Below are positions 40,394 through 55,349 of a DNA stretch of 64,000 nt, one piece after another (position 1 is the first letter of the stretch; the number at the start of each line of letters is the position of its first letter). The notes under the pieces were generated by a model, which was not told the DNA's origin, made no database searches, and saw nothing but the letters and a program-made list of their open reading frames with translations. The stretch comes from Elusimicrobiota bacterium (lineage in GTDB: Bacteria; Elusimicrobiota; Elusimicrobia; UBA1565; UBA9628), in contig DAHXMM010000005.1 in NCBI GenBank assembly GCA_027371715.1, positions 133,750-197,749 on the forward strand, given 5' to 3'. The translations under genes were made by a program, and so were the position numbers.

Positions 40394-40406
40394 TTCTAAA
40401 AACAAT

Positions 40407-40444
40407 GGGCGTGTAGCTCAGCTGGGAGAGCGCCTCGTTCGCAA
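40407..40444 (+). repeat. attL: orphan 5' half of tRNA-Ala (positions 1-38, ending in the anticodon loop)
   Basis: GGGCGTGTAGCTCAGCTGGGAGAGCGCCTCGTTCGCAA is identical to 55174-55211. The sequence diverges completely after 40444. TATAAT at 40389-40394 lies 12 nt upstream. Confidence 0.9.
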
Positions 40445-40445
40445 T

Positions 40446-40493
40446 GGGAAAAGCCCGATTCCCCGGTTTTTTGTCCGGCCTTGACTGATTCGG
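40446..40493 (+). repeat. left copy of a ~48-nt imperfect direct repeat (21-nt perfect core 40464-40484)
   Basis: GGGAAAAGCCCGATTCCCCGGTTTTTTGTCCGGCCTTGACTGATTCGG versus 41309-41357. The shared core is CGGTTTTTTGTCCGGCCTTGA. Confidence 0.85.
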
Positions 40494-40675
40494 TTTCTCG
40501 ACGAGAAATCACTAAAATTCATTTTTTGGGCTTTGCTGGATTTTTCCCGTTTTTGACCCCGGATGGACACTATTTGGACACCAAACTTTTGGCGTCTTTG
40601 TCCGCCAAGCCAAGGCGATAAAGTGGTAAAATAATTTTGGGTTAAAAGAGGGGACGTTCGGAAAGTGGAAATGGT

Positions 40676-40978
40676 ATGAATGCGAAAAGCGGCGAACAAA
40701 TACTTGACGTCATCGGCAAAAATAAGAAAACTCTCGAACGGTTGGGGGTGAAGCGCCTTGGGCTTTTCGGCTCGTTCGCCGCGGGCCGAGGCGGCCCGGA
40801 TAGCGATCTTGATTTTCTAGTCGAGTTCGAGCGCAAATCCTTCGATTCCTATATGGATCTTAAGTTTTTTCTCGAGGAAACATTCGAGCGGCCGGTCGAT
40901 CTAGTTTGTCCCGAGGCCATAAAGCCGCGGCTGAAACGCGATATTCTAAACGCGACTCTTTATGTCCAGGGATTATAG
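40676..40978 (+). CDS. MNT-type nucleotidyltransferase (antitoxin of an MNT/HepT pair)
   Basis: GLFGSFAAGRGGPDSDLDFLVEF is the GS...DxD minimal nucleotidyltransferase motif. 100 aa. Overlaps the next gene by 17 nt. Confidence 0.85.
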   Translation: MNAKSGEQILDVIGKNKKTLERLGVKRLGLFGSFAAGRGGPDSDLDFLVEFERKSFDSYMDLKFFLEETFERPVDLVCPEAIKPRLKRDILNATLYVQGL

Positions 40979-41303
40979 AGTCTACCTGGAGGATATGCTG
41001 GAGGCGACCCGTAAGATATCGGCCTATATTAACGGGAATTCCGAGAAATGGCACGAAGATGAAAAAACCAAGGACGCCGTTTTGCGGAACCTCGAGTTGA
41101 TAGGAGAAGCGGCGAAAAATATTCCCGAATCCATACGCGGTAAGAACCCGCGAATAGATTGGAGAAAGCTGGCCGGGCTTCGAGATATTCTCATCCATCA
41201 ATATTTCGGCATTGATGACGAAATCATATTGGATATCGTCCGAAACAAAATTCCAACCTTAACGGTTCATCTGCGCGAGGCGTTGAAAAACATCTCTCCT
41301 TAG
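40962..41303 (+). CDS. HepT-like (DUF86) HEPN-domain RNase toxin
   Basis: HEPN Rx4H motif in GLRDILIHQY. 113 aa. Paired with the upstream MNT gene. Confidence 0.85.
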   Translation: MSRDYRVYLEDMLEATRKISAYINGNSEKWHEDEKTKDAVLRNLELIGEAAKNIPESIRGKNPRIDWRKLAGLRDILIHQYFGIDDEIILDIVRNKIPTLTVHLREALKNISP

Positions 41304-41308
41304 CCTCT

Positions 41309-41357
41309 TGGAAAAACCCGGTTTCGCGGTTTTTTGTCCGGCCTTGATTGCTTTCGG
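41309..41357 (+). repeat. right copy of the ~48-nt imperfect direct repeat (core 41327-41347)
   Basis: TGGAAAAACCCGGTTTCGCGGTTTTTTGTCCGGCCTTGATTGCTTTCGG begins 6 nt after the HepT stop. Confidence 0.85.
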
Positions 41358-41403: not shown

Positions 41404-42195
41404 ATGAGCGAATGGAACTTGGCAATTTGTGAAACAAACCAAATTAACATACACTACGTAAGGACCGGAGGAAACAAACCTCCTTTAATTTTGCTGCATG
41501 GGTTAACCGCGAACGGGGCCTGTTGGACTTCCGTGGCGCAGTCTCTGGAAGGAGAATATGATGTAATTATGCCTGACGCTCGAGGTCATGGAAAGTCGAG
41601 CGCACCTATCGACGGATACCGATACGAAGACCATGTAAACGACATAGAGGGTCTTATTCACTCTCTCAGGTTATCTCATCCGATTGTGATCGGCCATTCC
41701 ATGGGAGGCATGACTGCGGCTTTTCTGGCTTCTCGTAAGAGCAGGCTTCTTCGGGGTCTAGGCTTAGTTGACCCCACTTTTTTGAATCCACAAGTTCAGC
41801 GCGAGGTTTATGAAAGCGATGCGGCCGAACAGCATCGACGACTTCTTAGCGAGTCTCCGGAAGAAACTCTAGCGGAAGCGCGGACTAAACATCCACAGCG
41901 CTCATTAGAAACCCTAAAATTAATCGCCGAAGCACGGCATCAAACGAGCATAAGCGCCTTTCAAGTTCTTATGCCGCCAAACCCAGAGTATAAGCAATTA
42001 GTGAGCGCCATTGACGTTCCCAGCCTGCTCGTGATTGCTGAGAAGGGAGTGGTTTCGCAGGCGGTAGCTGAAGAGCTGCGCGGCCTTAGTCCGAGACTTT
42101 ACGTAGAAAAAATCATGGGAGCCGGCCACGGTGTCCATTATGATCAACCCGAGCAATTCGCAGACGTCATTCAGTCCTTCTTGCGTGCGATTTAA
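41404..42195 (+). CDS. alpha/beta-fold hydrolase
   Basis: LLHGLTANGACW, the nucleophile elbow GHSMGG, and a C-terminal GAGHGVHYDQPEQF. Confidence 0.8.
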   Translation: MSEWNLAICETNQINIHYVRTGGNKPPLILLHGLTANGACWTSVAQSLEGEYDVIMPDARGHGKSSAPIDGYRYEDHVNDIEGLIHSLRLSHPIVIGHSMGGMTAAFLASRKSRLLRGLGLVDPTFLNPQVQREVYESDAAEQHRRLLSESPEETLAEARTKHPQRSLETLKLIAEARHQTSISAFQVLMPPNPEYKQLVSAIDVPSLLVIAEKGVVSQAVAEELRGLSPRLYVEKIMGAGHGVHYDQPEQFADVIQSFLRAI

Positions 42196-42695
42196 CTCTT
42201 CGCGGCCGAGGAGCTGATCTCGCTTCTTTCCCGTCCTTTTAACTCCGATGCCGAAGCGGCGCTTAAGAAGGGCCGCGCTTCGGGCTCATAGGCCGTGAAA
42301 TGCTCTCGGGTATTGATCTCGATCTTAAGACGCATGGGCGCGATCGGAGATATCTCCGACTCCATTCTGTAGCGCAGCGTGACATTGTCGGAGTTGTTCT
42401 CGCGTCGAGGCTTCCCCAAGACAGGGTCGAGTCGGGCGCGGATGGCGCTCATGACCGGCCCGATTGACTCGGACTTTATCTGAACGAGGTCAATGTCCTC
42501 CGAGTAGCGATGCGGCGTTTTAACCAAAAGCTTGTGCAGCGCGGTGCCGCCGCGCAGAAGAAGGGACTTAGACAACAGCGGATCCTGAAATATTTCGGTC
42601 AGCGCGCGAGAGAGAATCAGGTCCTGCTCGACTTGGGCGTCCTGCGGCCAAGGCGCAATGCCGCGCCAATGCGTGATCGCGGCCTCGGGAATCAT
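42192..42695 (-). CDS. AbiEii/DUF1814-type nucleotidyltransferase toxin, apparently C-terminally short
   Basis: LLLRGGTALHKLL...RYSEDIDLV motif. ATG 42693-42695 overlaps the AbiEi stop (ATGA). Only ~167 aa, and the last ~30 aa are Ser/Ala-rich and not family-like. The 3' end overlaps the convergent hydrolase gene by 4 nt. Confidence 0.6.
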   Translation of the reverse strand: MIPEAAITHWRGIAPWPQDAQVEQDLILSRALTEIFQDPLLSKSLLLRGGTALHKLLVKTPHRYSEDIDLVQIKSESIGPVMSAIRARLDPVLGKPRRENNSDNVTLRYRMESEISPIAPMRLKIEINTREHFTAYEPEARPFLSAASASELKGRERSEISSSAAKS

Positions 42696-43486
42696 GCCTC
42701 GGGCTCGGGGTTTGCGTTGATCCAGAGCCGCCACTTCCGGCTCTCCAAGTCGGGGAAGGGGGCGGCGGGGTCAAGCGGACGCAACGGCGCGTCCTTGACC
42801 CAATCGGCGAGTTCCTTGGACAGGTCGCGGCGTCCGATTTTATCCAGAAGATAGCCGAGCCGCTGCGCCACGATCATTTCGCCGTGCGCTTTGACGAGTT
42901 TCTTAAGTTTCGCGGCGTCGATTTTTTCCGCCAGCTCGGACAGGATGGTCACGACGTGATCAAGCCCTCCCGCGACCTTGAAGTAGCGCACGAGGTCCCA
43001 GGCTGTTGTCTCGGGAGTCGAGACCCGCATGAAGCCTGTCGGAGTTTTCACATCCTGGGTCTGCGCGCGCTCGAAAGGCCCCTTGCCGTGAAAGCGGATC
43101 GAGACGTTGCCTGAACGCACCGGCCGCGCCGCGCGCTCCGGGATTATGACCTGGAACTCCTGGGGGCGGTGGTGCGCCGCGCCGTGAACCTGCGCCGCCG
43201 ACAACAACCCGACATAGTAAGGACGGCCCATGTCCTTCATCATCTCGTGGATGAACCATTCGGCCGGCAGGGTGCCGACGGCCCGATGCTGCGCATCGAC
43301 CACGACGTAGAAACCCGAACGCGGCATGGCCAGACCTCGGGCGTTCACCAGACGATGCAGGGACATATAAGTTGCATTGCGGGAGCGGCCGAGCTTGCGG
43401 GCCGCCTCTTCGCGGGTGAAGGTGTAGCGGCCCTGGCCAAGCAGCTCCTCGACAAAGCGTCCGGCCTTCAGAAAAGGGTTTTTCAT
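42692..43486 (-). CDS. AbiEi-family (type IV TA) antitoxin / transcriptional regulator
   Basis: N-terminal wHTH pattern GRYTFTREEAARKLGRSRNATYMSLHRLVNARGLAMPRSGFYVVV and a COG5340-like C-terminal domain. Translationally coupled to the AbiEii gene. Confidence 0.7.
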   Translation of the reverse strand: MKNPFLKAGRFVEELLGQGRYTFTREEAARKLGRSRNATYMSLHRLVNARGLAMPRSGFYVVVDAQHRAVGTLPAEWFIHEMMKDMGRPYYVGLLSAAQVHGAAHHRPQEFQVIIPERAARPVRSGNVSIRFHGKGPFERAQTQDVKTPTGFMRVSTPETTAWDLVRYFKVAGGLDHVVTILSELAEKIDAAKLKKLVKAHGEMIVAQRLGYLLDKIGRRDLSKELADWVKDAPLRPLDPAAPFPDLESRKWRLWINANPEPEA

Positions 43487-43657: not shown

Positions 43658-44608
43658 TTACTTGTATTTGGCGCTTTCTTTCAGCCAGGCGATCAGCTCT
43701 TGCCCCATTATCTTTCGACGATGGACTTCGTCATGGTCTACATTGCATAAGGTGACAAGGTTTTCGGGCTCGTGTCCTCCGCCCAAATGATGATAAACGA
43801 CATGGTGGACTTCCAGGAATTGCCGCTTGCCCGCCGGATTGCGGTCCGACTGAGACCATCCGCAGCGGCGACACTTGTAGGCGTCCCGATCCAAGACTTG
43901 ATCGTAAACAAGATCGGGAATGCTGCGGTCGTGCTCGGGAAGCTGTTGTTCGGATTCGAGCACATAGACGCCGGCGGGCAGATCAGGGCGGCCAGTCTGC
44001 TTCGTGACGATTCTCCATCCTAATTCCCGCCGCAATTCCCGAATGCGCCGTGCCGTCTCGCGGATGCCGGATACGTAGGCAAGTTGTTCTCCCGTAATGG
44101 GACTCCCCACGTATGCCTTAAGAAGCGCAAGTGCCCTATTCCGGGCGTTGCCGCCCTGTCGTTTGATCCGGTTTACCGTTCCCCACTTCTTGGCGGCCTC
44201 TTTGTCGGGCACGGTGCTCTCAAGCACGTATTGATCAGGTCTCAAGTCTTCGCGCGAATAGCCGGTCGATACGTTGTATCCGAATTGAACCCTCAGTTCG
44301 CGGATTCTCCGAGCGAACTCCTGAATGCCGCCGACGATTTGCAATTCGGCGCCATCTATGATTTCGCCCGAGAACAACTTGAGGTAGGCAAGGATTCTGT
44401 CGCGGGCAGCGGATGTCGTGGTCAACCGTCCAAGCCGCATTTTCGCCAGAGCGCGCAAATCTGTCATTATTTTCGCAAGCTTTCGCACTTCGGCCCGGAT
44501 TTCAGCGCGGCGGGTCGGAGGACTGGACGGAATGTCGGATAATAAGTCCCTCAATTTCGTTATCGCGAGGTCATTACCGCTTTTGGATCGATTTTTCAAT
44601 TTCGCCAT
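43658..44608 (-). CDS. HNH endonuclease with two tandem wHTH-like repeats; candidate restriction endonuclease
   Basis: C-terminal CRRCGWS...FLEVHHVVYHHLGGGHEPENLVTLCNVDHDEVH (HNH/His-Me finger with CxxC). Preferred start is ATG 44606-44608 (MAKLKNRSK). The track ORF begins at GTG 44710. Confidence 0.7.
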   Translation of the reverse strand: MAKLKNRSKSGNDLAITKLRDLLSDIPSSPPTRRAEIRAEVRKLAKIMTDLRALAKMRLGRLTTTSAARDRILAYLKLFSGEIIDGAELQIVGGIQEFARRIRELRVQFGYNVSTGYSREDLRPDQYVLESTVPDKEAAKKWGTVNRIKRQGGNARNRALALLKAYVGSPITGEQLAYVSGIRETARRIRELRRELGWRIVTKQTGRPDLPAGVYVLESEQQLPEHDRSIPDLVYDQVLDRDAYKCRRCGWSQSDRNPAGKRQFLEVHHVVYHHLGGGHEPENLVTLCNVDHDEVHRRKIMGQELIAWLKESAKYK

Positions 44609-44691
44609 AAAACAAATTCTACTTCTTCTTAACCTTAAAGCAAACTCTCTTGACGGAACTTTTTCCGAGGAAAATCGTATGTATATATAGG

Positions 44692-44745
44692 GGTTGACAG
44701 TTAGTTGCACGAAGGTTGACTAAAGTAATCAACCTCTGCTAGAAT
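44692..44745 (+). promoter_or_regulatory. sigma70-like promoter with operator-like repeats for the methyltransferase gene
   Basis: TTGACT (44716-44721), N18, TAGAAT (44740-44745). GGTTGAC occurs at 44692-44698 and 44714-44720, and the inverted repeat AGGTTGA-N9-TCAACCT (44713-44719 / 44729-44735) straddles the -35. Confidence 0.5.
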
Positions 44746-44766
44746 CTTGTCTTGGGAGGGCTTCCA

Positions 44767-46203
44767 ATGAGCGATAGATTGGGCGGTATATTGAGGAATC
44801 TGCGCAAGCAGAAAGGAATAGGGCTAAAGCAGTTGTCAAAAACCCTAAAGGTGGACCGGGCGCACCTCAGTCGAATAGAATCCGGGAAGGTCGTTCCCTC
44901 GGACGTCCTGCTCCGCCGGATCGGCCGCCGCTTGGGCGGAGATATGGAACTTCTGACCATCCTTGCGGGCCGTCTTCCGAAAGATATTCAGAATTTGTTC
45001 ATCGAGAAACCGAAGGAGGTCGTGTCCTATTTACGGCAAGTCGCCGCGTTTAATGGGCATAGCTTGTTCGCGGAGAACGGCAACGGCTTTCATCCTAACG
45101 GGCGCCGGAAATACCGCGTGATCGATCTGTTTTCGGGAGCCGGCGGCTTTACTCTCGGCCTCGCCAAGACCGAACGGTTCGAGCCCGTCTTTGCCAATGA
45201 CTTTAACCGTTTTGCAGTGGATACCTATAACCATAACTTCGGCGATCACTGCGTCGGCGGGGATATCAATGCTCTGCTTGAGCATCGCGATCTGAAGTTG
45301 CCTGCCGCCGATCTGGTAGTAGGGGGGCCGCCGTGCCAGGGTTTCAGCTTGTTGAACAAGAAACGCGAGGGAGATCCTCGAAAAGAGCTTTGGCGCGCGT
45401 ATATGACGGTAGTGGAGCGGGTGAAGCCGCTTGCGTTCGTAATGGAAAACGTTCCCGAATTGCTTCCCTCCCAAGAATTCGCGGAGATTCGAAAGATATC
45501 GGCGAAGATGGGTTATCAATTGGATTACGCGGTCTTAAACGCCGCCGACTACGGCGTTCCGCAACGCCGCCGCAGAGCCATCGTCATCGGATGCAGAGTT
45601 GCAAAGCCCAAGTTGCCGCTTCCGACGCATTTCAACCCGGCAAAGAGCGACGATCTCTTCAGGACCGGTCTCCTTCAGTGGGAATCGGTTGGACGGGCTA
45701 TCGGAGACCTCCCCGATCCGGAAGGCATTGAGGTACGCGTCGGCGAGGTCAATCCGCCGATGGACCTGCATTTCGGCCGCACTCCTATGCCGTCGAGCCT
45801 CCAAAGATATCGTTGCATCCCCGAGGGGGGAAACCGATTCGATCTCCAAAAAAAGCGTCTTGACCTCACTCCCAAATGTTGGATCAGGAAAAAATCGGGC
45901 GGGACGGATTTGTTCGGGCGTTTGTGGTGGGACAAGCCGGCGTTTACGATCCGCACCGAGTTCTTTAAGCCCGAAAAGGGGAGATACCTGCATCCGCGGC
46001 AGCATCGGCCGATCACTCATCGCGAGGCGGCGAGACTCCAGAGCTTCCCCGACGATTTCATTTTCCGGGGAACAAAAACGGAAATCGCCCGTCAAATCGG
46101 CAATGCGGTCCCTCCGCTTCTCGGCCGTCGCATCGGCGAAGCGGTCGCGGCAACTTTAGATTCGGCGAGCGTCTCGATATATACCGAGACCGTCGTTGCT
46201 TGA
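44767..46203 (+). CDS. DNA (cytosine-5) methyltransferase with an N-terminal XRE-type HTH
   Basis: HTH LRKQKGIGLKQLSKTLKVDRAHLSRIESGK. Motif I DLFSGAGGFTLG, motif IV GGPPCQGFS, motif VI FVMENV, motif VIII QRRRRAIVIG, motif X QIGNAVPP. GGGAGGG lies 6 nt upstream of ATG 44767. Confidence 0.9.
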   Translation: MSDRLGGILRNLRKQKGIGLKQLSKTLKVDRAHLSRIESGKVVPSDVLLRRIGRRLGGDMELLTILAGRLPKDIQNLFIEKPKEVVSYLRQVAAFNGHSLFAENGNGFHPNGRRKYRVIDLFSGAGGFTLGLAKTERFEPVFANDFNRFAVDTYNHNFGDHCVGGDINALLEHRDLKLPAADLVVGGPPCQGFSLLNKKREGDPRKELWRAYMTVVERVKPLAFVMENVPELLPSQEFAEIRKISAKMGYQLDYAVLNAADYGVPQRRRRAIVIGCRVAKPKLPLPTHFNPAKSDDLFRTGLLQWESVGRAIGDLPDPEGIEVRVGEVNPPMDLHFGRTPMPSSLQRYRCIPEGGNRFDLQKKRLDLTPKCWIRKKSGGTDLFGRLWWDKPAFTIRTEFFKPEKGRYLHPRQHRPITHREAARLQSFPDDFIFRGTKTEIARQIGNAVPPLLGRRIGEAVAATLDSASVSIYTETVVA

Positions 46204-46211
46204 CGGCATAA

Positions 46212-46658
46212 ATGGCGGATATTTTCTCGAAGAAAAAACGTTCCGCCATTATGGCGTTGATTCGAAACAAACATACCGCACCTGAGAAGGCTCTCAAGCG
46301 GCGGCTGCGCGCACAAGGCGTTAGATACCGCAGTCAGTGCTCGCGCCTCCCCGGCACTCCCGATATCGTTTTGCCGGAGGCCAAGGTCGCCGTGTTTATT
46401 AACGGATGTTTTTGGCACGGACACAAGGGCTGTCGCCGGAGCAAGCTTCCGACTACGAACGTCAAGTTCTGGAAGCGTAAGATTGCAAAGAACGTCGCGC
46501 GGGATCGCGCCGTAACGCGGAAGCTCAGGGCGATGGGTTGGAAGGTGAGGGTTTACTGGACGTGTAAAAGGTTGTCCGAGGTTGTTCCCGTCGTGGCGCG
46601 GGCAAATTATTCCAAGGCGCATAACCCCGGAAGCGGGGACGGCCAACGGTCGCCATGA
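46212..46658 (+). CDS. vsr: very-short-patch repair endonuclease
   Basis: Close in pattern to E. coli Vsr: MADIFSKKKRSAIM..., LPGTPDIVLPEAKVAVFINGCFWHGH, FWKRKIAKNVARDR, GWKVRVYWTC. Confidence 0.9.
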   Translation: MADIFSKKKRSAIMALIRNKHTAPEKALKRRLRAQGVRYRSQCSRLPGTPDIVLPEAKVAVFINGCFWHGHKGCRRSKLPTTNVKFWKRKIAKNVARDRAVTRKLRAMGWKVRVYWTCKRLSEVVPVVARANYSKAHNPGSGDGQRSP

Positions 46659-46713: not shown

Positions 46714-47355
46714 TTAGGCTTTGTCTTCAATGACAAATTGATTGACAGGGACTTCCCCGGCAACTTCCAAGAACTTTCCGATGTCTGTGAAGAATAGCAA
46801 TTGCGCTGTTCCAATTTCGCTCTGCAGATGGGGATGAAGAATGCCGCCGGACTCTTTGGCGCAATATGCGGTACGATCATTGGAAATAAACGCAGTGTCC
46901 ACATTCTTATTCCGGACATGATTCCGCACGCTTAGCCAAATCGTCCCATCTCGAAATCCGTTTCCCTTCACGTCGAACGGCGGTAGGCGTTTGATTGCTC
47001 GATTCTGAAGGTCCTCCAAGGCACCAGCTCCCGGATTTGGCAAGAATCGAACTCGTCCTTGAATTAGAAGTTCCTCCCAGCGAGCGAGATAGGCAGGGGC
47101 GTCGGTTTCACCAGAAGGTAATTCGACCTCGATTTCTTGTCCTATTAAGCGTCCCAGCTTCGCTGCGGCGGATACAATATTACCTCGATATTTGTCGCAA
47201 TGCTGCAAGTGGTTCGAGATGCATTCCTTCTTGACCACCTCCGGCACTAGCATGACGCAGCTAGATTTTTTAAGGTGTGTCCACAGCTGCTGCCAAATCT
47301 GTGACCTCATCATGGGGTCAGAAAAGATTATGTTGCTGTCGACGATGATATCCAC
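46714..47355 (-). CDS. PIN-like nuclease-fold protein (DUF4935-type); third gene of the orphan operon
   Basis: MDIIVDSNIIFSDP (N-terminal acidic DxN), LVPEVVKKE, GNGFRDGTIWLSV and AFISNDRTAY follow the PIN-like pattern I associate with DUF4935. The GTG start (47353-47355) overlaps the upstream TAG by 1 nt. Confidence 0.6.
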   Translation of the reverse strand: MDIIVDSNIIFSDPMMRSQIWQQLWTHLKKSSCVMLVPEVVKKECISNHLQHCDKYRGNIVSAAAKLGRLIGQEIEVELPSGETDAPAYLARWEELLIQGRVRFLPNPGAGALEDLQNRAIKRLPPFDVKGNGFRDGTIWLSVRNHVRNKNVDTAFISNDRTAYCAKESGGILHPHLQSEIGTAQLLFFTDIGKFLEVAGEVPVNQFVIEDKA

Positions 47356-50300
47356 TAGATCTCGGCCTCGACCTCTGCGTCTTCGCGTCGAGCTTGTTTG
47401 GTATAGTAGGTTGCGATGCGCTGGAGAACTGTTGCCGTCCTCGGCCAGCGGGACTGTGCCTTCAAAGCGTAGGCTTCATATCGCTTTGCCAGTTCGCGCT
47501 CCTGCCGTCCTCCGTCAGTCGGAGACTTGTAATAGATGCCGCGTTTGTTGATAATTCCCGTCCTCAGACCCTGCTCAATATCTGTAGAATTCGCTTCTTC
47601 TAGGATGTCGCGAACGGGCTGGCAGGGCCACGAACCATCAGAATCTTCCTGAGCATAGGCAAAGACCTTTCCAATCATGATGTCGCATACTTCGATCCGG
47701 TCGACTTCCGTAGCCTTTTTCCGGGCCTCTCGGACCCAAGTTAAAAGCGCGGGGGTATCAACAGAGCCGTCGTCTCTTGCGCCCGGTAGTCGCTTCCAGT
47801 CGCCAAGCAGAATGGCAGCCCGCTGAACCTGTTCTTTCTTATCCTCTGGCAGCTCGACATCTTTGCTCTTGTCTCGGTGTTTTGGTAGGAAGTTAAGAAT
47901 CAACATGTCGACGAAGAACGCCGGATCATGGGAGAGTTTGTGTTCAAGCGCGCGTGGGACCATCTGTCCGCGTAGACCCGGCAACAGCAACCACTCGAGC
48001 GTCGCCATCCGCGAGCCGTCGACATCTCTCGCATTCTGCAACTCTCCAAAAACGTCCTCGACCATCGACGCGTGCAACGGCCGCCTCTCTGTCGATAAGG
48101 TTTGGAGCGTCAGTTCAAATAGGTCGAGGAGCTTGGGGCCGGGCAGAGCGACTTTCCGCGTCGTGGCCATGCCAAGCACATCGAGCGCGGAAGCCGAACG
48201 TCCGACCGACACGAGTTTCCGGACGATGTATTCGACATCATCCGGCCCGCCTTGGACGAACGGCCGGGCCATGCACCAATACTCTGCTTCGACGGACTCC
48301 CCTAGGGTGGCGACGAACTCCCAGGTAGCCTTTTCATGCGGAAGGAACTCCAAAACAATAGCGGCCTGCTTCGGCTTCCAGCCACTCAGGGGTAACCCCT
48401 TTATCCAATCCCACCCGCCTATTGATGCACGGCGCTCCGCGAATCCCCGCGCAAATCCCTCCAGGGGAGAATCACCGCAATCGAGAAGTGTGGGGAGAAT
48501 CTCGGCGTCGTACTTGTCGGCGGCGGCATCGACGAGCGCGACTCCAACGGCCCAGGGCTCGCCTGCCGAGCGCGCCAGATTCTTAACAGACTCATACCCG
48601 TGTTGCTGGACCAACTCCTTGACGCATTCTGCTCGTCGCTTCCGAGTCAGAGCCTCTTGGTCCGACCAAGACAAGGAGTCATCGCCAATGAGGTCCAATC
48701 CATTTTTAAATAGAGGCAGGGCACGCTCGACCGGATCAGCAGGCTTGAATAGATTGACAATCACCTCAAGTCGCTCAAGAACCGGTTGCCTGATCGCCCA
48801 CATGGCTTTCTTAAAGTATCTGTGGCGCTGAACCTCCTCCCTGAGGCCGAGCCAAATCTTTAGGCGCAACTCTCCAGGAAGTTCCAGTTTGGCCGTGGCT
48901 TCCATTGCAGAAATTGCGCGCTCAAGTTCCGCTGGTGGATAGTTGGCAAAGTGTTTGAAGATGTCAAGCCACTTCTCGGGCTCTTTTTCGCTAGCCGCGA
49001 TCGCTTTGTTTATGTAAGTGATTGTCACGCGGGAGTAGTCTCCACGGGTCACGTTGCGCTTCCACTTTTCGGCCCAATACCTCCATTCAGGTAGGGAACG
49101 GCCAGAGATCGTGCCCATTTGTTCCGGCAGCAGTTTCAACAACAGTTGCCAACCGACCTTCGGGAAGCGCTCGAGGAGCAACCCAACAACATCCACCTGT
49201 TGATCGGGCGTCGCAGTGGTGTGGGGCAACCATGGGCAAAATATATCCCTCAGGCTCGCGTCCGGCCGGTTTGCCCATTTGCCGCCGGGATCGCGTTGCG
49301 CGAGGTGAGCCAGCACAATGGCGGCTCGGGTCAAATGTTCAGGAGCCCAAGCGACTCTCTCGAGCGCCCACAGGATCCCGGTATGCTCGGGACGACCCGT
49401 TAAGCTATCGCCTTCTTCGGCGAAGAGTTTGGGTAGTTGAGGATCCGCGCTTCCCAAATCGATCTCGGCGACATGGAGAAAGATATCGGGGGCAGCCTCG
49501 GCGAGCGTCGATAGTAAGTGCCCTAGGGATGCCCACCGTCGCCATGAGGCATCTTTGGTTAAGATGATTCGCACCGTGCGGCTGACCCTGTCGCACAACG
49601 GCATCGTGTCGGCGACCTGCTCGTTGGACTCGCGTGTTGCAAGTAAGGCCAAACTCTGGGACAAGCCACGGCGAATAGCCTCGGAATGCGGGAGTAGCTT
49701 GCCATGCACACTGGCCATCCAGCGATCCTCTCGCTCCAACTCTAGGCGCGGATCGTCTGCCGCTAGTGCTGCCACAGCGGCGTCTTCAAACGCGGACAGA
49801 TGCCCAGGTGTCAGGGCCTTCGCCAAGAATTTCCACGCGTCTTGGGCCGAGACAAATTCCCATTCGCCGTTCGCCCACCGCACGGGGGTATCGGCTTCCT
49901 CTCTCCACTTGTTTAGCGTCTTGAGCACATCCGCGTATGGCCGCCCAGAAACCTTCTCAACGATCGCCTGGTCGGCTACCGAGCTATCCTCCCAGGCGCC
50001 TACCAGCAGTAAGGGGGCAAGTTCTGTTGCAGCATCGCCTGAAGTCCACTTGGGAGCCTTTATGTTTGGGACGGTGGACATCTGGCGCTTCAGGATCGAG
50101 AACGAGCCACCCGAGTGCTGAGCGCTCACATGGGCCTCTTGTTCCGACATACCTGATTCGCTCAGAACTTTCTCGAGTTCGTATCGGTTCATCCTCTCGA
50201 GTTTATGGGTTTGCCTCCCATCGGGGGACAAGGCAGAGAGCGGGGACAGGACGAAATGCCCTTTGCGATCGGCTTCCGCCAGCAATTCCTGCGATAACTC

Positions 50301-51122
50301 GAGCTGTTCCGCCCGGATTAGGATCAAATCTTGCCCCGAGTCTAGTAGCTGTCGCCATGAATCGGCCTGTTCAACGATGATCGCGCGGCTTGCCACCGTA
50401 GCCTGCTGTTCTCCCGAAAGTGAAGCTACCCAGGCAGCGAAAACGTCTACGACCTCCTGAGGCGACTCAGCTCGAATTGAAAGGAAGTTGGGCTTTTGGC
50501 TCAACCAGTCCTTAATCGCGCTGACAGTCGACGTGCGTGAGACTAATAGTGCCTGTGGAGGCAGGAGGGGCTTCATACTCGCCTGCAGATTGTTCCAATG
50601 CGATGAGATATCAGTGAGACCGGACGCGTTCCTACCGAGGAGGCGCATGAACCACAGAGCCACGCTCGGAGACTCTTCAATCCACTGTTCAAGATCGTTC
50701 GAGTCATACACTCGTACGTCTTGCCAAAGCCCAAGATTCTTCTTCTCCTCAGTCCATTCGTGCTTCTTCTGAAAATCTCTTGGTGTGACGGCGATGTAGG
50801 TAGAAGTAACTGCCTCGGCGTTGTTCTTGGTCCTCTTTTCAAAGTCGCTTTCGAGCTTCTCTCGAATCGCTTTGTCGGTTCCAAGCTCCCAAAAAGAGGA
50901 GCCCGATGGCACCTTGGAACTGCCACTCTTCGCCTTCGTCCGCCCGTCAAACCCTGGACGCTGGGCCTCCTCACCGCCAAGAAAGTCGATTAGCTCGAGG
51001 TCGGCCTTCGGAATTGAAACGTGGATTAACCGACGGACAAGTTCCGGGAAGCGAGTTCGCGCGTCGACCGTATCGGCCCAGCGATTCAACTCGACTGCGG
51101 ATATCCATTTAGGGTGTTGCAT
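47355..51122 (-). CDS. 1255-aa protein of unknown function; second gene of the orphan operon
   Basis: Uninterrupted ORF in GC-rich DNA. No Walker A (GxxxxGK[ST]), HNH, HEPN or other catalytic signature found by eye. Predominantly Leu/Ala/Glu/Arg/Trp-rich helical-looking sequence. The N-terminal ~170 aa is a distinct module. Confidence 0.75.
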   Translation of the reverse strand: MQHPKWISAVELNRWADTVDARTRFPELVRRLIHVSIPKADLELIDFLGGEEAQRPGFDGRTKAKSGSSKVPSGSSFWELGTDKAIREKLESDFEKRTKNNAEAVTSTYIAVTPRDFQKKHEWTEEKKNLGLWQDVRVYDSNDLEQWIEESPSVALWFMRLLGRNASGLTDISSHWNNLQASMKPLLPPQALLVSRTSTVSAIKDWLSQKPNFLSIRAESPQEVVDVFAAWVASLSGEQQATVASRAIIVEQADSWRQLLDSGQDLILIRAEQLELSQELLAEADRKGHFVLSPLSALSPDGRQTHKLERMNRYELEKVLSESGMSEQEAHVSAQHSGGSFSILKRQMSTVPNIKAPKWTSGDAATELAPLLLVGAWEDSSVADQAIVEKVSGRPYADVLKTLNKWREEADTPVRWANGEWEFVSAQDAWKFLAKALTPGHLSAFEDAAVAALAADDPRLELEREDRWMASVHGKLLPHSEAIRRGLSQSLALLATRESNEQVADTMPLCDRVSRTVRIILTKDASWRRWASLGHLLSTLAEAAPDIFLHVAEIDLGSADPQLPKLFAEEGDSLTGRPEHTGILWALERVAWAPEHLTRAAIVLAHLAQRDPGGKWANRPDASLRDIFCPWLPHTTATPDQQVDVVGLLLERFPKVGWQLLLKLLPEQMGTISGRSLPEWRYWAEKWKRNVTRGDYSRVTITYINKAIAASEKEPEKWLDIFKHFANYPPAELERAISAMEATAKLELPGELRLKIWLGLREEVQRHRYFKKAMWAIRQPVLERLEVIVNLFKPADPVERALPLFKNGLDLIGDDSLSWSDQEALTRKRRAECVKELVQQHGYESVKNLARSAGEPWAVGVALVDAAADKYDAEILPTLLDCGDSPLEGFARGFAERRASIGGWDWIKGLPLSGWKPKQAAIVLEFLPHEKATWEFVATLGESVEAEYWCMARPFVQGGPDDVEYIVRKLVSVGRSASALDVLGMATTRKVALPGPKLLDLFELTLQTLSTERRPLHASMVEDVFGELQNARDVDGSRMATLEWLLLPGLRGQMVPRALEHKLSHDPAFFVDMLILNFLPKHRDKSKDVELPEDKKEQVQRAAILLGDWKRLPGARDDGSVDTPALLTWVREARKKATEVDRIEVCDIMIGKVFAYAQEDSDGSWPCQPVRDILEEANSTDIEQGLRTGIINKRGIYYKSPTDGGRQERELAKRYEAYALKAQSRWPRTATVLQRIATYYTKQARREDAEVEAEI

Positions 51123-51143
51123 TGGCGAACCCGCTTGTTGGCT

Positions 51144-51782
51144 TTATGCCAAACGAAGCCAAGTGTTGCAGACCGGGCAACGAAACATATTCATGCCTTG
51201 CGGGTGGTGCATCTGAAACGACGATCGGCACTTCCCGCATAGAATTGTCTGGCCCACGGGGCGTTGCGACGCTTTGTTGGAAAGGATTGCGCCGCCAACC
51301 GCTCCTATGACCGCGCCTCCGGGACCGCCCATAAGCGCCCCTGCGCCCGCTCCGGCCGCCGCGGCGGCCAAGACATTTGAATCATCGTAGGACTCGATCA
51401 CCTTCATAATGTAGGCCAAGAAGTTATCATTCTGCGCAAGGACTACGTAGTGCCGCAGGTGCGGCGTGACAACGGAAATCTGCCCCTGTTCGACTTGCTG
51501 TTCGAAAACCCAGATGTCTTTGTTCCCGCTACTCGCAACGCCCGATTCCCAGACAACCCAATCTCGGGTGTAGGGCGTCCGCTCGACGTTTCCGCTGAGC
51601 AGGATGAACGCAGCGTTGGAAAACTGAATATCCTGCTGGATCTTAGTCGTGTTTACGCTGTCGGCAATCAACTTCTCAAGCTCTTCAAATACAAGCTTGA
51701 CCTTGGTCGTGGCCCCAGCTTTCGCGAAAAAGTTGACAAGATCGCGGTCCTTTGCGCTGTGCGAAACAAAAATTTGTGCCAT
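51144..51782 (-). CDS. TIR-like domain protein with a glycine-zipper segment and C-terminal zinc ribbon; first gene of the orphan operon
   Basis: ATG 51780-51782 is preceded by GGAGG (8-nt spacer). MAQIFVSHSAKDRDLV (the FxSHSxxD start typical of bacterial TIR/DUF1863), ...AFILLSGNVERTPYTRDWVVWESGVA (conserved Glu position), AAAAGAGAGALMGGPGGAVIGAVGGAIL (Gly zipper), CGKC...x16...CPVC (Zn ribbon). Confidence 0.6.
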   Translation of the reverse strand: MAQIFVSHSAKDRDLVNFFAKAGATTKVKLVFEELEKLIADSVNTTKIQQDIQFSNAAFILLSGNVERTPYTRDWVVWESGVASSGNKDIWVFEQQVEQGQISVVTPHLRHYVVLAQNDNFLAYIMKVIESYDDSNVLAAAAAGAGAGALMGGPGGAVIGAVGGAILSNKASQRPVGQTILCGKCRSSFQMHHPQGMNMFRCPVCNTWLRLA

Positions 51783-52237
51783 TCGTGTTACCTCCAAGAG
51801 GATGTCCCGCTCTTATCTTAGTTGAAAGCTGTTGAGGCGAGATTTTCATTCTAACTCATTCGTTTGTTTACTGTCCAGTTTCTCTTTGGGAAAGAGTTTT
51901 GACGAGAAACGGCAGGAGCTTGTGCCCCTTGGTACTGCGCCACGATTTCTCCGCCGCGCAAGCTTTTCGCTTGATGCGTCTTTTCCTGCACGAAAGCAAA
52001 TGGCGACTCGGGCGGATTAGTTGTTCTCACGCTCAACTTTATCGGAACCTTCAAGCGGTGAAGTGTCAGTTTTTCCTTTAGTCCCTCATACAAACTCGCC
52101 ACCAACGGATTGATCCGTTCTGATGAGAGTGTAAAAAAAACAAGGTGTTTTTTTAACACTACTCAGGCCCTTCTACCCGGGACAAAATTCCGCTTCCAAC
52201 ACAACGGAAAGCTTCCATTGAGCGTTATTTTAAGATT

Positions 52238-54097: not shown

Positions 54098-55165
54098 ATG
54101 GGACTCTTCAAAAAAGGCGAGAGCTGGTATATCGACTATTACCATGGAAGACGCCGGAAGCGGGAGAAAATCGGCCCCTCCAAAACCCTGGCCAAGGAAG
54201 TTTTGCGAAAGCGGCAAGCCCAGGGGGCGGAGCGGCGATTTTTCCCCGAACGACAACAACAGTCCATCGCCTTTTCGCAAGCCGTTGAGAAATATTGGAA
54301 ACTGGAAGGGCAATATTTAAAGGCCAAGGGCATTCGCTCGGTTTTCGAGGCGTTAAAGGTCAAGTTTGGGGGCCGCAGGCTTTCGGATATCGCCGTTTCG
54401 GACGTTCAGGAGATTTATAACAAAAAGGCGGAAGAGACCTCTGCTTCAACGGCGAACCGCTTAATCGCGTTTCTTTCCCCGGTGTTTAACCGCGCCAAGG
54501 ATTGGGGAGATTTCCTCGGGGAAAATCCCGCCGAGAAAATCCGCCGCAGGAAGCCCGGCAATCATCGCCTGAGATTTCTTGAAGAGGAGGAAATTCGGAG
54601 GCTTTTTCTTGCCTGTTCCGCTTCGATAAGGCCGATCCTGTCGTGCGCCGTTTTGACGGGAATGCGGAAGGGAGAAATATTGGGACTAAGCTGGGAGAAC
54701 GTGGATTTGGAGCGCAACATCATTTTCATTCTTAAATCGAAATCGGGAAAGGCGCGGGAAATCCCGATAGGCGGGAAATTAAGGGAAGTTTTTTTGGCAT
54801 TGGGACCGCAGGCCCAGGGCTCCGTGTTCGATGTGCCGGAAATTACGCTTCGCCGGAGATTCTTTTCGGCGCTCAAAGATGCTAAAATAGAAATGTTCAG
54901 GTTCCATGACTTGCGACACACTTTCGCCAGTCATTTTGTCATGAAAACGGGAGATTTGCCGACTTTGCAGAAAATATTGGGTCATTCTTCGCCTCAAATG
55001 ACGCAACGCTACGCTCATTTGGCGAAGGGGCACTTGGCCGCGAAGATGGAAAAATTTGATTCGTCCATGCCTATCGAATCTTTAGATTTGCCGAGAGATG
55101 GACACTATTTGGACACCAGCTCCAAAATAGAAGTTTCAAAAATCGAGAAAAACGCTTATAAGTAA
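54098..55165 (+). CDS. int: tyrosine-type site-specific integrase
   Basis: Catalytic blocks TGMRKGEILGLSWENVD (Arg I), HDLRHTFASH (HxxR) and LGHSSPQMTQRYAHL (His, then nucleophile Tyr). The stop is 8 nt before the tRNA. Confidence 0.9.
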   Translation: MGLFKKGESWYIDYYHGRRRKREKIGPSKTLAKEVLRKRQAQGAERRFFPERQQQSIAFSQAVEKYWKLEGQYLKAKGIRSVFEALKVKFGGRRLSDIAVSDVQEIYNKKAEETSASTANRLIAFLSPVFNRAKDWGDFLGENPAEKIRRRKPGNHRLRFLEEEEIRRLFLACSASIRPILSCAVLTGMRKGEILGLSWENVDLERNIIFILKSKSGKAREIPIGGKLREVFLALGPQAQGSVFDVPEITLRRRFFSALKDAKIEMFRFHDLRHTFASHFVMKTGDLPTLQKILGHSSPQMTQRYAHLAKGHLAAKMEKFDSSMPIESLDLPRDGHYLDTSSKIEVSKIEKNAYK

Positions 55166-55173
55166 AGGATTTT

Positions 55174-55246
55174 GGGCGTGTAGCTCAGCTGGGAGAGCGC
55201 CTCGTTCGCAACGAGGAGGTCGCAGGTTCGATCCCTGTCACGTCCA
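55174..55246 (+). tRNA. tRNA-Ala (anticodon CGC), intact; its 5' 38 nt form attR
   Basis: Acceptor stem GGGCGTG/CACGTCC with G3:U70, D-arm TAGCTCAGCTGGGAGAGC, anticodon stem-loop CCTCG-TTCGCAA-CGAGG, T-arm GGTTCGATCC, discriminator A. CCA is not encoded. Confidence 0.9.
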
Positions 55247-55349
55247 CGTTTTTCATTGATGAGTCCTGAAAGACGCCTCAGTCAAGAATGCGCTCTGGCT
55301 TCTATAAAATCGCGGCGGCGAAATCCGGTTAGGCCGCATCCAAAAAATT

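Follow-up and report, generated by a model that had tools for sequence, protein, structure and literature searches.

The window analysed here is a stretch of 64,000 nucleotides (nt) from an Elusimicrobiota bacterium (contig DAHXMM010000005.1, positions 133,750 to 197,749 of the forward strand), and all coordinates below are those of the window. Three adjacent genes on its minus strand, called g1, g2 and g3 here, are our subject; the largest of them, g2, encodes a protein that is clearly a remote homologue of the defence protein Avs8 (PD-λ-4A), in which the STAND fold is kept and the Walker motifs are lost. An earlier note on this DNA had described the three open reading frames (ORFs) as a tightly packed operon and had proposed them as an undescribed defence system, and the gene structure that it gave is present in full. 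The g1 ORF occupies 51144..51797, g2 (47355..51122) encodes 1255 amino acids from an ATG start, and g3 (46714..47355) encodes 213 amino acids from a GTG start. Direct reading of the sequence gives a 21-nt spacer between the TAA stop of g1 and the ATG of g2, and a TAGTG junction at which the g2 stop overlaps the g3 GTG start by one base. The g1 ORF and its stop at 51144 also stand, and only the start has to be moved: read from the TTG at 51797 the protein would have 217 amino acids, and the true start is most likely the ATG at 51782 (212 amino acids; 51144..51782 with the stop), because a GGAGG ribosome binding sequence lies 8 nt upstream of it and the resulting MAQIF N-terminus is found in 45/45 aligned homologues. 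A sigma-70-like sequence on the same strand upstream of g1 (51848..51877, TGGACA-18-TAGAAT, 10/12 match) is a promoter candidate, although such promoter and terminator scans give consensus-level hints only and the candidate is no evidence of function.

Pfam and NCBIfam searches with g2 gave no match, and a profile search of the PDB with its sequence returned only noise (best E = 0.038, a de novo designed protein). Its structure was predicted with AlphaFold 2 (AF2) in two halves from a 35-sequence alignment. The model of residues 1–470 has a predicted local distance difference test score (pLDDT) of 90.7 and a predicted template modelling score of 0.88, and its best Foldseek matches in the PDB are Avs3 (7.6e-6), Avs4 (2.6e-5) and the Avs5 filament (1.1e-4), followed by Apaf-1, CED-4, the NB-ARC domain/NRC1 and the RFC/AAA+ clamp loaders. 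The model of residues 441–1255 (pLDDT 90.3) is all helical and matches the solenoids of importin, CAND1 and Pds5. The STAND/Avs architecture is present in g2, with a fold of nucleotide-binding domain, helical domain and winged-helix domain (NBD-HD-WHD) between an N-terminal effector and a C-terminal repeat sensor. Residues 1–165 (50628..51122, minus strand, as are all parts of g2) comprise an Mrr/PD-(D/E)xK-like effector domain, of topology alpha-beta-beta-beta-alpha-beta in the AF2 model, and a conserved DVRVYDxxxLExW linker. Residues 195–310 (50193..50540) have the STAND-type nucleotide-binding-domain fold by Foldseek and hhalign, with both Walker A and Walker B lost, and residues 311–440 (49803..50192) form the helical and winged-helix-like domains (AF2 and a co-linear hhalign match to Avs8A). 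The remainder, residues 441–1255 (47358..49802), is an all-alpha HEAT/TPR-like solenoid by AF2, Foldseek and hhalign, and a putative ligand sensor. We note that several motifs in this sensor are strongly conserved across phyla, namely HTGLLWALExLAW and DPGGxWANRPxNSL (residues 584–624, ~49251–49371) and, near the C-terminus, NxRG...GGxxER (residues 1192–1208, ~47499–47549); motifs kept to this degree point to a fixed binding pocket or to a latch within the molecule, and for the WAN segment there is also a weak alignment with Avs8A-like sensors.

The relationship to Avs8 is found at the level of sequence profiles as well. The sole recurrent PADLOC match in the g2 family is to the model PD-Lambda-4_A, 1283 positions long (PD-λ-4A is reportedly from Vassallo in 2022), with weak matches in 11 of 38 members; in g2 itself the match is co-linear and weak (21.1 bits, E = 1.3e-5) and covers residues 136–198 only. 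A genuine Avs8A, which matches positions 1–1283 of the same model with 1777 bits, was found by permissive tblastn on an Enterobacter plasmid (locus L170 in our collection). The g2 family profile aligns to this protein with an hhalign probability of 95.8% over 789 columns, and a 160-sequence g2 profile aligns to a six-sequence Avs8 profile with a probability of 98.5% (E = 3e-15) over 972 columns, which span residues 23–1072 of g2 and 17–1121 of Avs8A. BLASTP of g2 against Avs8A gives two co-linear high-scoring segment pairs, one in the linker (g2 139–168, 57% identity) and one in the sensor (g2 536–646 against Avs8A 557–659). The earlier view of g2 as an unknown orphan is thus not borne out, Foldseek leading to Avs3, Avs4 and Avs5 and hhalign to Avs8.

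The hhalign alignments pair the motifs of the two families as follows. The Mrr motif DGGVD of Avs8A corresponds to PGFDG of g2, with D59 in the position of the catalytic Asp, and the QxK motif FQAK corresponds to WELG, with E79 in the position of the Gln and G81 in that of the Lys. Walker A (GLSGVGKT) corresponds to AESPQEVV, so that the P-loop is lost, and Walker B (IIDN) to LIRA, where the acidic residue is lost. A Walker A motif GxxxxGK[ST] is found nowhere in the sequence in any member of the g2 family (0/160), compared with 6/6 diverse Avs8 homologues; the remark in the earlier note that g2 has no Walker A is correct and holds for the whole family. The P-loop position reads A-[ED]-S-P-[DEQ]-E across the family and the Walker B Asp is replaced, while D59 and E79 do not vary and K89 hardly does. 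We describe the family as Avs8-like, P-loop-less STAND receptors. By its published description an experimentally characterised Avs8, KpAvs8, is naturally devoid of nucleotide-binding residues (10.64898/2026.01.04.697583), and the g2 family may be simply the P-loop-less branch of Avs8.

The g2 family is large. It has at least 599 matches in species-representative genomes and at least 585 in metagenomes, from many phyla including archaea, and among 1.84 billion representative proteins it comprises 3671 clusters at E <= 1e-3 and 1644 at E <= 1e-30. Homologues are present in 24 plasmid records, among them a solitary copy on a conjugative Shewanella plasmid, and on 28 viral contigs, and PHROG 18693 ("unknown function") is matched with E = 5e-171. 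An XRE-type helix-turn-helix (HTH) domain is fused to the N-terminus in 20/159 members (~13%; for example loci L024, L036, L043 and L049, and L178 4841–8905 on a Rhizobium gallicum plasmid). In RefSeq such fused members go under "helix-turn-helix transcriptional regulator" or "HigA antitoxin", names that probably mislead for a 1350-amino-acid Avs-like protein. A 1182-amino-acid protein on an IMG/VR prophage contig (L182 5149–8697) shares the WHD and the sensor (g2 residues 359–1244) and has another N-terminal module, an apparent effector swap on the same sensor, and swapping of effectors is typical of Avs families. This module (...FE...DxD...QIK) has no Pfam match and resembles Cap4/HamA by eye only; similar N-terminal swaps are seen in L183–L186 and L202.

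Gene neighbourhoods were compared in 159 loci with an intact g2 homologue. A tightly coupled ORF on the same strand lies upstream in 40 of 143 loci and downstream in 52 of 139. By Pfam the coupled upstream neighbours are chiefly HsdS (7), with YgjP-like proteins and methylases besides, and the downstream ones chiefly HsdR (8), with single cases of Mrr, NERD, nSTAND1, TumE, RelA/SpoT, PIN_3 and an integrase; Schlafen is also found among the coupled neighbours. In about eight loci (including L057, L082, L122, L129 4386–12533, L132 and L138) the g2-family gene stands between hsdS and hsdR of a type I restriction-modification (R-M) operon, which is a strong guilt-by-association signal for defence. 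With tightly coupled same-strand neighbours in a minority of loci, g2 is normally autonomous, and it is often wedged inside type I R-M operons. On two Rhizobium plasmids a separate Avs8A-like STAND gene of 1165 amino acids is the next gene downstream of the g2 homologue (L178 9304–12801; NZ_CP022669.1 297839–300658) and adjoins AbiE and restriction genes. It was considered as a partner or paralogue of g2 and ruled out, the hhalign probability being 2.6% and the gap between the genes 400 nt.

Of the two smaller proteins, g1 had been read as TIR-like, and this is moderately supported by sequence comparison. The putative TIR-like domain (residues 1–125, 51408–51782) carries an FxSHSxxD beta-A motif and a Glu79, in WVVWE, that is invariant across 45 sequences. 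ThsB-type TIR models of PADLOC match g1 at E = 4e-7 and match 34/45 of its homologues, the PADLOC candidate model PDC-S66 matches 11/45 homologues, and the top matches in a PDB profile search are the bacterial TIR domains of AbTIR and Tir (E = 0.04–0.09). Pfam TIR_2 (PF13676) scores 17.4 bits against g1, below the cut-off of 28, and 24.9 bits against its 87% identical homologue; precomputed PF13676 matches exist for many other homologues. The domain is followed by SYDDS (residues 131–135), invariant in the 45-sequence alignment, a glycine zipper (residues 138–167, 51282–51371) with Pfam matches to membrane-peptide families, and a CxxC...H...CPxC zinc ribbon (residues 180–212, 51147–51245) identified by Pfam matches and the alignment. 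All of these features are on the minus strand. The three-part architecture is common to a family of at least 302 members. In four sets of g1-homologue neighbours, those neighbours are a TPR protein, a DEAD-helicase/DUF559 giant with an RNase H-like gene, transposases and an RHS toxin, and no g2 homologue adjoins a g1 homologue in any of the four. In L166 (6001–11294), L167 and L168 the g1 homologue lies directly upstream of genes for a 1229-amino-acid zinc-ribbon/DUF559/DEAD-helicase protein and an RNase H-like protein, and a restriction enzyme of the R.HinP1I type is encoded close by. Such an arrangement may be a further uncharacterised defence cassette that shares the TIR/Gly-zipper module.

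The PIN-like nature of g3, also proposed previously, is well founded: g3 is a member of PIN_12 (PF16289, formerly DUF4935), with 55.9 bits against a cut-off of 32 (E = 9.4e-15) over profile positions 1–171 of 172, and the acidic active-site residues D6, E39, E44, D136 and D160 are conserved in an alignment of four homologues. These four are its only close homologues, and all of them track the g2 clade. DUF4935/PIN_12 genes are usually mono-cistronic and encode proteins of ~350 amino acids (PMC5499597, Matelska et al. 2017).

The trio lies in a genomic island of ~14.8 kb that is integrated at a tRNA-Ala gene and whose ends, found by repeat search, are a perfect 39-nt direct repeat (40406–40444 = 55173–55211). 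The left copy (40406..40444, plus strand), the far end of the island, repeats the 5' half of the tRNA. The integration module at the other end (54098..55247, plus strand) consists of a tyrosine integrase (54098–55165; Pfam Phage_integrase and Int_N) and tRNA-Ala(cgc) (55174–55247, plus strand, ARAGORN), which contains the right copy of the attachment-like repeat. Since the repeat copies the 5' half, the island is on the 5' side of an intact tRNA-Ala, which is unusual; beyond the tRNA comes a gene of the arginase family. Listed in order, the island carries MNT/HepT, an alpha/beta hydrolase, AbiEii/AbiEi, an HNH protein with winged-helix HTH (wHTH) domains, an HTH-Dcm fusion, Vsr, the g1-g2-g3 trio, a PadR-like protein, an excisionase-like gene and the tyrosine integrase, and GC content is elevated across 42–52 kb. 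The defence-island context of the trio is real: the island had been described as integrase-bounded with MNT/HepT, AbiE and R-M-Vsr cargo, and the cargo is indeed there, although only one integrase is present and the boundaries are the 39-nt repeats.

Several details of the island deserve mention. A second perfect repeat, of 22 nt (40562–40583 = 55097–55118), has its latter copy in the 3' end of the integrase gene and seems to be left over from an earlier or a tandem integration. The MNT (40676–40978) and HepT (40962–41303) genes are bracketed by 44-nt direct repeats (40447–40490 and 41310–41353) that are 86% identical, as if this toxin-antitoxin module were a separately inserted cassette. The AbiEii ORF (42192–42734, minus strand) encodes just 180 amino acids, covers positions 1–120 of the 238 in the Pfam profile and overlaps abiEi by ~43 nt, and it may be truncated or frameshifted. 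At 43658–46658 the HNH endonuclease with winged-helix domains and the XRE-HTH-fused Dcm methylase are divergent, with Vsr coming after the methylase, and the group has the look of a compact m5C R-M module with its own mismatch-repair nickase.

How far the trio is a unit can be judged from its recurrence. Among the 159 loci a phmmer search finds g1- and g3-like genes beside the g2 homologue only in a 78%-identical relative (L001/L002), and the Pfam census of the g2 loci found no other TIR_2 or PIN_12 neighbours. An 86%-identical relative fetched separately (L174) also keeps the trio, so that three unrelated contexts hold the whole cassette (the window, L001/L002 and L174). A fourth contig, L175, again has g2 paired with g3, and there the upstream fragment ends ...ARREDAEVEAES. 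These four instances are close relatives (g2 >=78% and g3 >=64% identical), and where g2 identity is <=50% the partners differ or are absent. A fixed partnership of g2 with both flanking genes is thereby ruled out, and the co-occurrence of all three genes in other genomes fails outside one narrow clade. What stands of the trio as an undescribed defence system is a tight operon-like cassette that sits in a defence island and recurs in close relatives; what does not is its orphan status, g2 having known kin, and its standing as a conserved three-gene system, the g1 and g3 partners being confined to that clade. Known systems built on such flanking genes were ruled out as well: Thoeris, because g1 matches ThsB-type models while g2 and g3 give no ThsA match and the island genes scanned contain no ThsA-type domain; a TIR system of the cyclic-oligonucleotide-based CBASS type, for want of the partner genes that define it; and a VapBC toxin-antitoxin pair, as the gene upstream of g3 is the 1255-amino-acid g2, with a 1-nt overlap, and no small partner ORF is there.

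In our view the locus is probably a mobile cassette for defence, built around g2 as a self-contained pattern-recognition nuclease of the Avs type that has lost nucleotide binding, with g1 and g3 accessory or independent. By analogy with Avs8, Avs3 and Avs4, the C-terminal alpha-solenoid of g2 would bind or wrap a conserved phage protein. Autoinhibition would then be released and, as homology suggests, g2 would oligomerise through its NBD-HD-WHD part without ATP, after which the clustered Mrr-like domains would degrade DNA and the infection would be aborted. In the published case Avs8A turns into a DNase once it has bound the HK97 capsid protein, and Avs8B can be dispensed with (10.1101/2025.07.02.662641). 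The g1 protein, with its catalytic-type Glu, putative Gly-zipper membrane segment and zinc ribbon, and the PIN_12 protein g3 would be modules that move separately and came together with g2 in one narrow clade. Presumably co-transcribed with it, they would most likely be independent or accessory toxin or defence genes, comparable to the dispensable Avs8B, and not obligate partners.

Four points weigh against this interpretation. Throughout the g2 family Gly or Ser stands where the (E/Q)xK motif would have its canonical Lys, so that K89 may serve in its place, or the nuclease may be non-canonical or inactive. With 21 bits on PD-Lambda-4_A, g2 is not a formal member of Avs8, and its last ~180 residues are not alignable to Avs8A. 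Finally, the persistence of the trio, with its translational coupling of g2 and g3, in three genomic contexts and of the g2-g3 pair in a fourth contig argues for some functional link within the clade.

In the alternative that survives best, the trio is an integrated three-component system in this clade and the P-loop-less g2 is a sensor and scaffold that, on activation, switches on, in trans, the g3 nuclease (a PIN RNase or DNase) and/or g1 (a TIR NADase or a glycine-zipper membrane disruptor). We consider it rather unlikely. The operon-like spacing of the genes, with a promoter-like site only upstream of g1, fits such a system, as do the undivided cassettes of three unrelated contexts, the g2-g3 pair in L175, the finding of the g3 close family (4 proteins) only with this g2 clade, and the missing canonical Lys of the g2 nuclease. 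There is also a precedent, since in Avs2-trypsin-MBL an Avs protein activates a separately encoded effector, the MBL (metallo-beta-lactamase) nuclease (10.64898/2026.08.25.746987). Against it, the family of ~3,700 clusters has g1- or g3-like neighbours nowhere else among the 159 sampled loci, D59, E79 and K89 are as conserved in the g2 of the window as in solitary members, g1 homologues occur in other contexts without g2, and all four instances are such close relatives that shared ancestry could explain the linkage. A bolder version seems distinctly doubtful to us: the g2 family would be widespread nucleotide-independent STAND-fold receptors with a rewired nuclease site, to which this clade would have added two effectors acting in trans, a membrane-targeted TIR/Gly-zipper protein and a PIN_12 nuclease, making a true multi-effector, three-component system that differs from every named TIR system.

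It is improbable that g1, g2 and g3 have no functional relation and hitch-hike together in the island as three separate single-gene modules, each for defence or a toxin. Each gene's family is distributed independently and the island is a mosaic of small separate systems, but the stop/start overlap and the integrity of the cassette in three contexts suggest at least co-expression and co-transfer, and some form of control would be needed for a PIN or TIR toxin that stands alone and has no evident antitoxin; this explanation in any case largely overlaps the interpretation of g2 as a self-contained core with accessory or independent neighbours. That g2 is a non-immune regulator or maintenance factor of mobile elements, or a decayed STAND relic, is very improbable: the RefSeq regulator and antitoxin names, the XRE-HTH fusions, the loss of both Walker motifs and of the canonical nuclease Lys, and plasmid copies near parAB could be read that way, but decay is incompatible with full length (~1250 amino acids) and dozens of invariant residues, the D/E/K triad included, being conserved across many phyla, and members of the family lie within type I R-M operons and defence islands and share homology with a proven defence protein, while KpAvs8 shows natural P-loop loss inside the characterised Avs8 family.

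STAND and nucleotide-binding leucine-rich repeat (NLR) receptors are thought to switch on through nucleotide binding and exchange. The g2 family, which keeps the STAND fold with neither Walker A nor Walker B in any sampled member, is a natural system in which to ask how such a receptor is held off and assembles in a nucleotide-free state. It is a candidate defence gene that the PADLOC v2 models miss, and its thousands of clusters are distributed over many bacterial phyla, some archaea, plasmids and prophages. Annotations also need correction: many members now bear the names "hypothetical", "HTH transcriptional regulator" or "HigA antitoxin", while PHROG 18693 is carried as of unknown function. 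The clade flanked by TIR and PIN genes would be a tractable test case for the acquisition of extra effectors by Avs-like sensors.

Among known systems Avs8/PD-λ-4A is the most similar. The two proteins have similar lengths (1255 amino acids in g2, 1283 in PD-λ-4A) and the same domain order, an Mrr-type nuclease-like domain, NBD-HD-WHD and an alpha-repeat sensor that is partly alignable, and they share the DVRVYDxxxLxxW linker at the 57% identity given above. Both are found on plasmids and islands near Abi and R-M genes, both have a small neighbour gene of doubtful necessity (Avs8B in the known system), and the one described member KpAvs8 is also devoid of nucleotide-binding residues. They differ in that identity to g2 is only ~17–19%, with PD-Lambda-4_A scores of 21 and 1777 bits. 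Walker A (GxxGVGK[ST]) is present in 6/6 sampled Avs8 homologues, whereas Walker A and B are both absent in the g2 family, which also has Gly or Ser for the QxK Lys and a C-terminal part of ~180 amino acids that cannot be aligned. The TIR-like and PIN_12 neighbours of g2, moreover, match no PADLOC PD-Lambda-4 model. Avs3, Avs4 and Avs5 (AVAST; PDB 8dgc, 8dgf and 9nc9) are the best structural matches of g2 residues 1–470 and have the same effector-STAND-sensor plan, but they are ATP-dependent with an intact P-loop, carry other sensors and have no sequence similarity to g2 that hidden Markov models detect. The N-terminal domain of g1 matches the Thoeris ThsB-type and PDC-S66 models and has their FxSHSxxD motif and invariant Glu in WxxWE, whereas the trio has no ThsA (SIR2/SLOG or Macro) and the Gly-zipper and zinc ribbon of g1 are outside the ThsB models. 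The g3 protein passes the Pfam threshold of PIN_12/DUF4935 and keeps the PIN acidic residues, and it differs from the described members, which are ~350 amino acids long and mono-cistronic, in its length of 213 amino acids and its coupling to an Avs-like gene.

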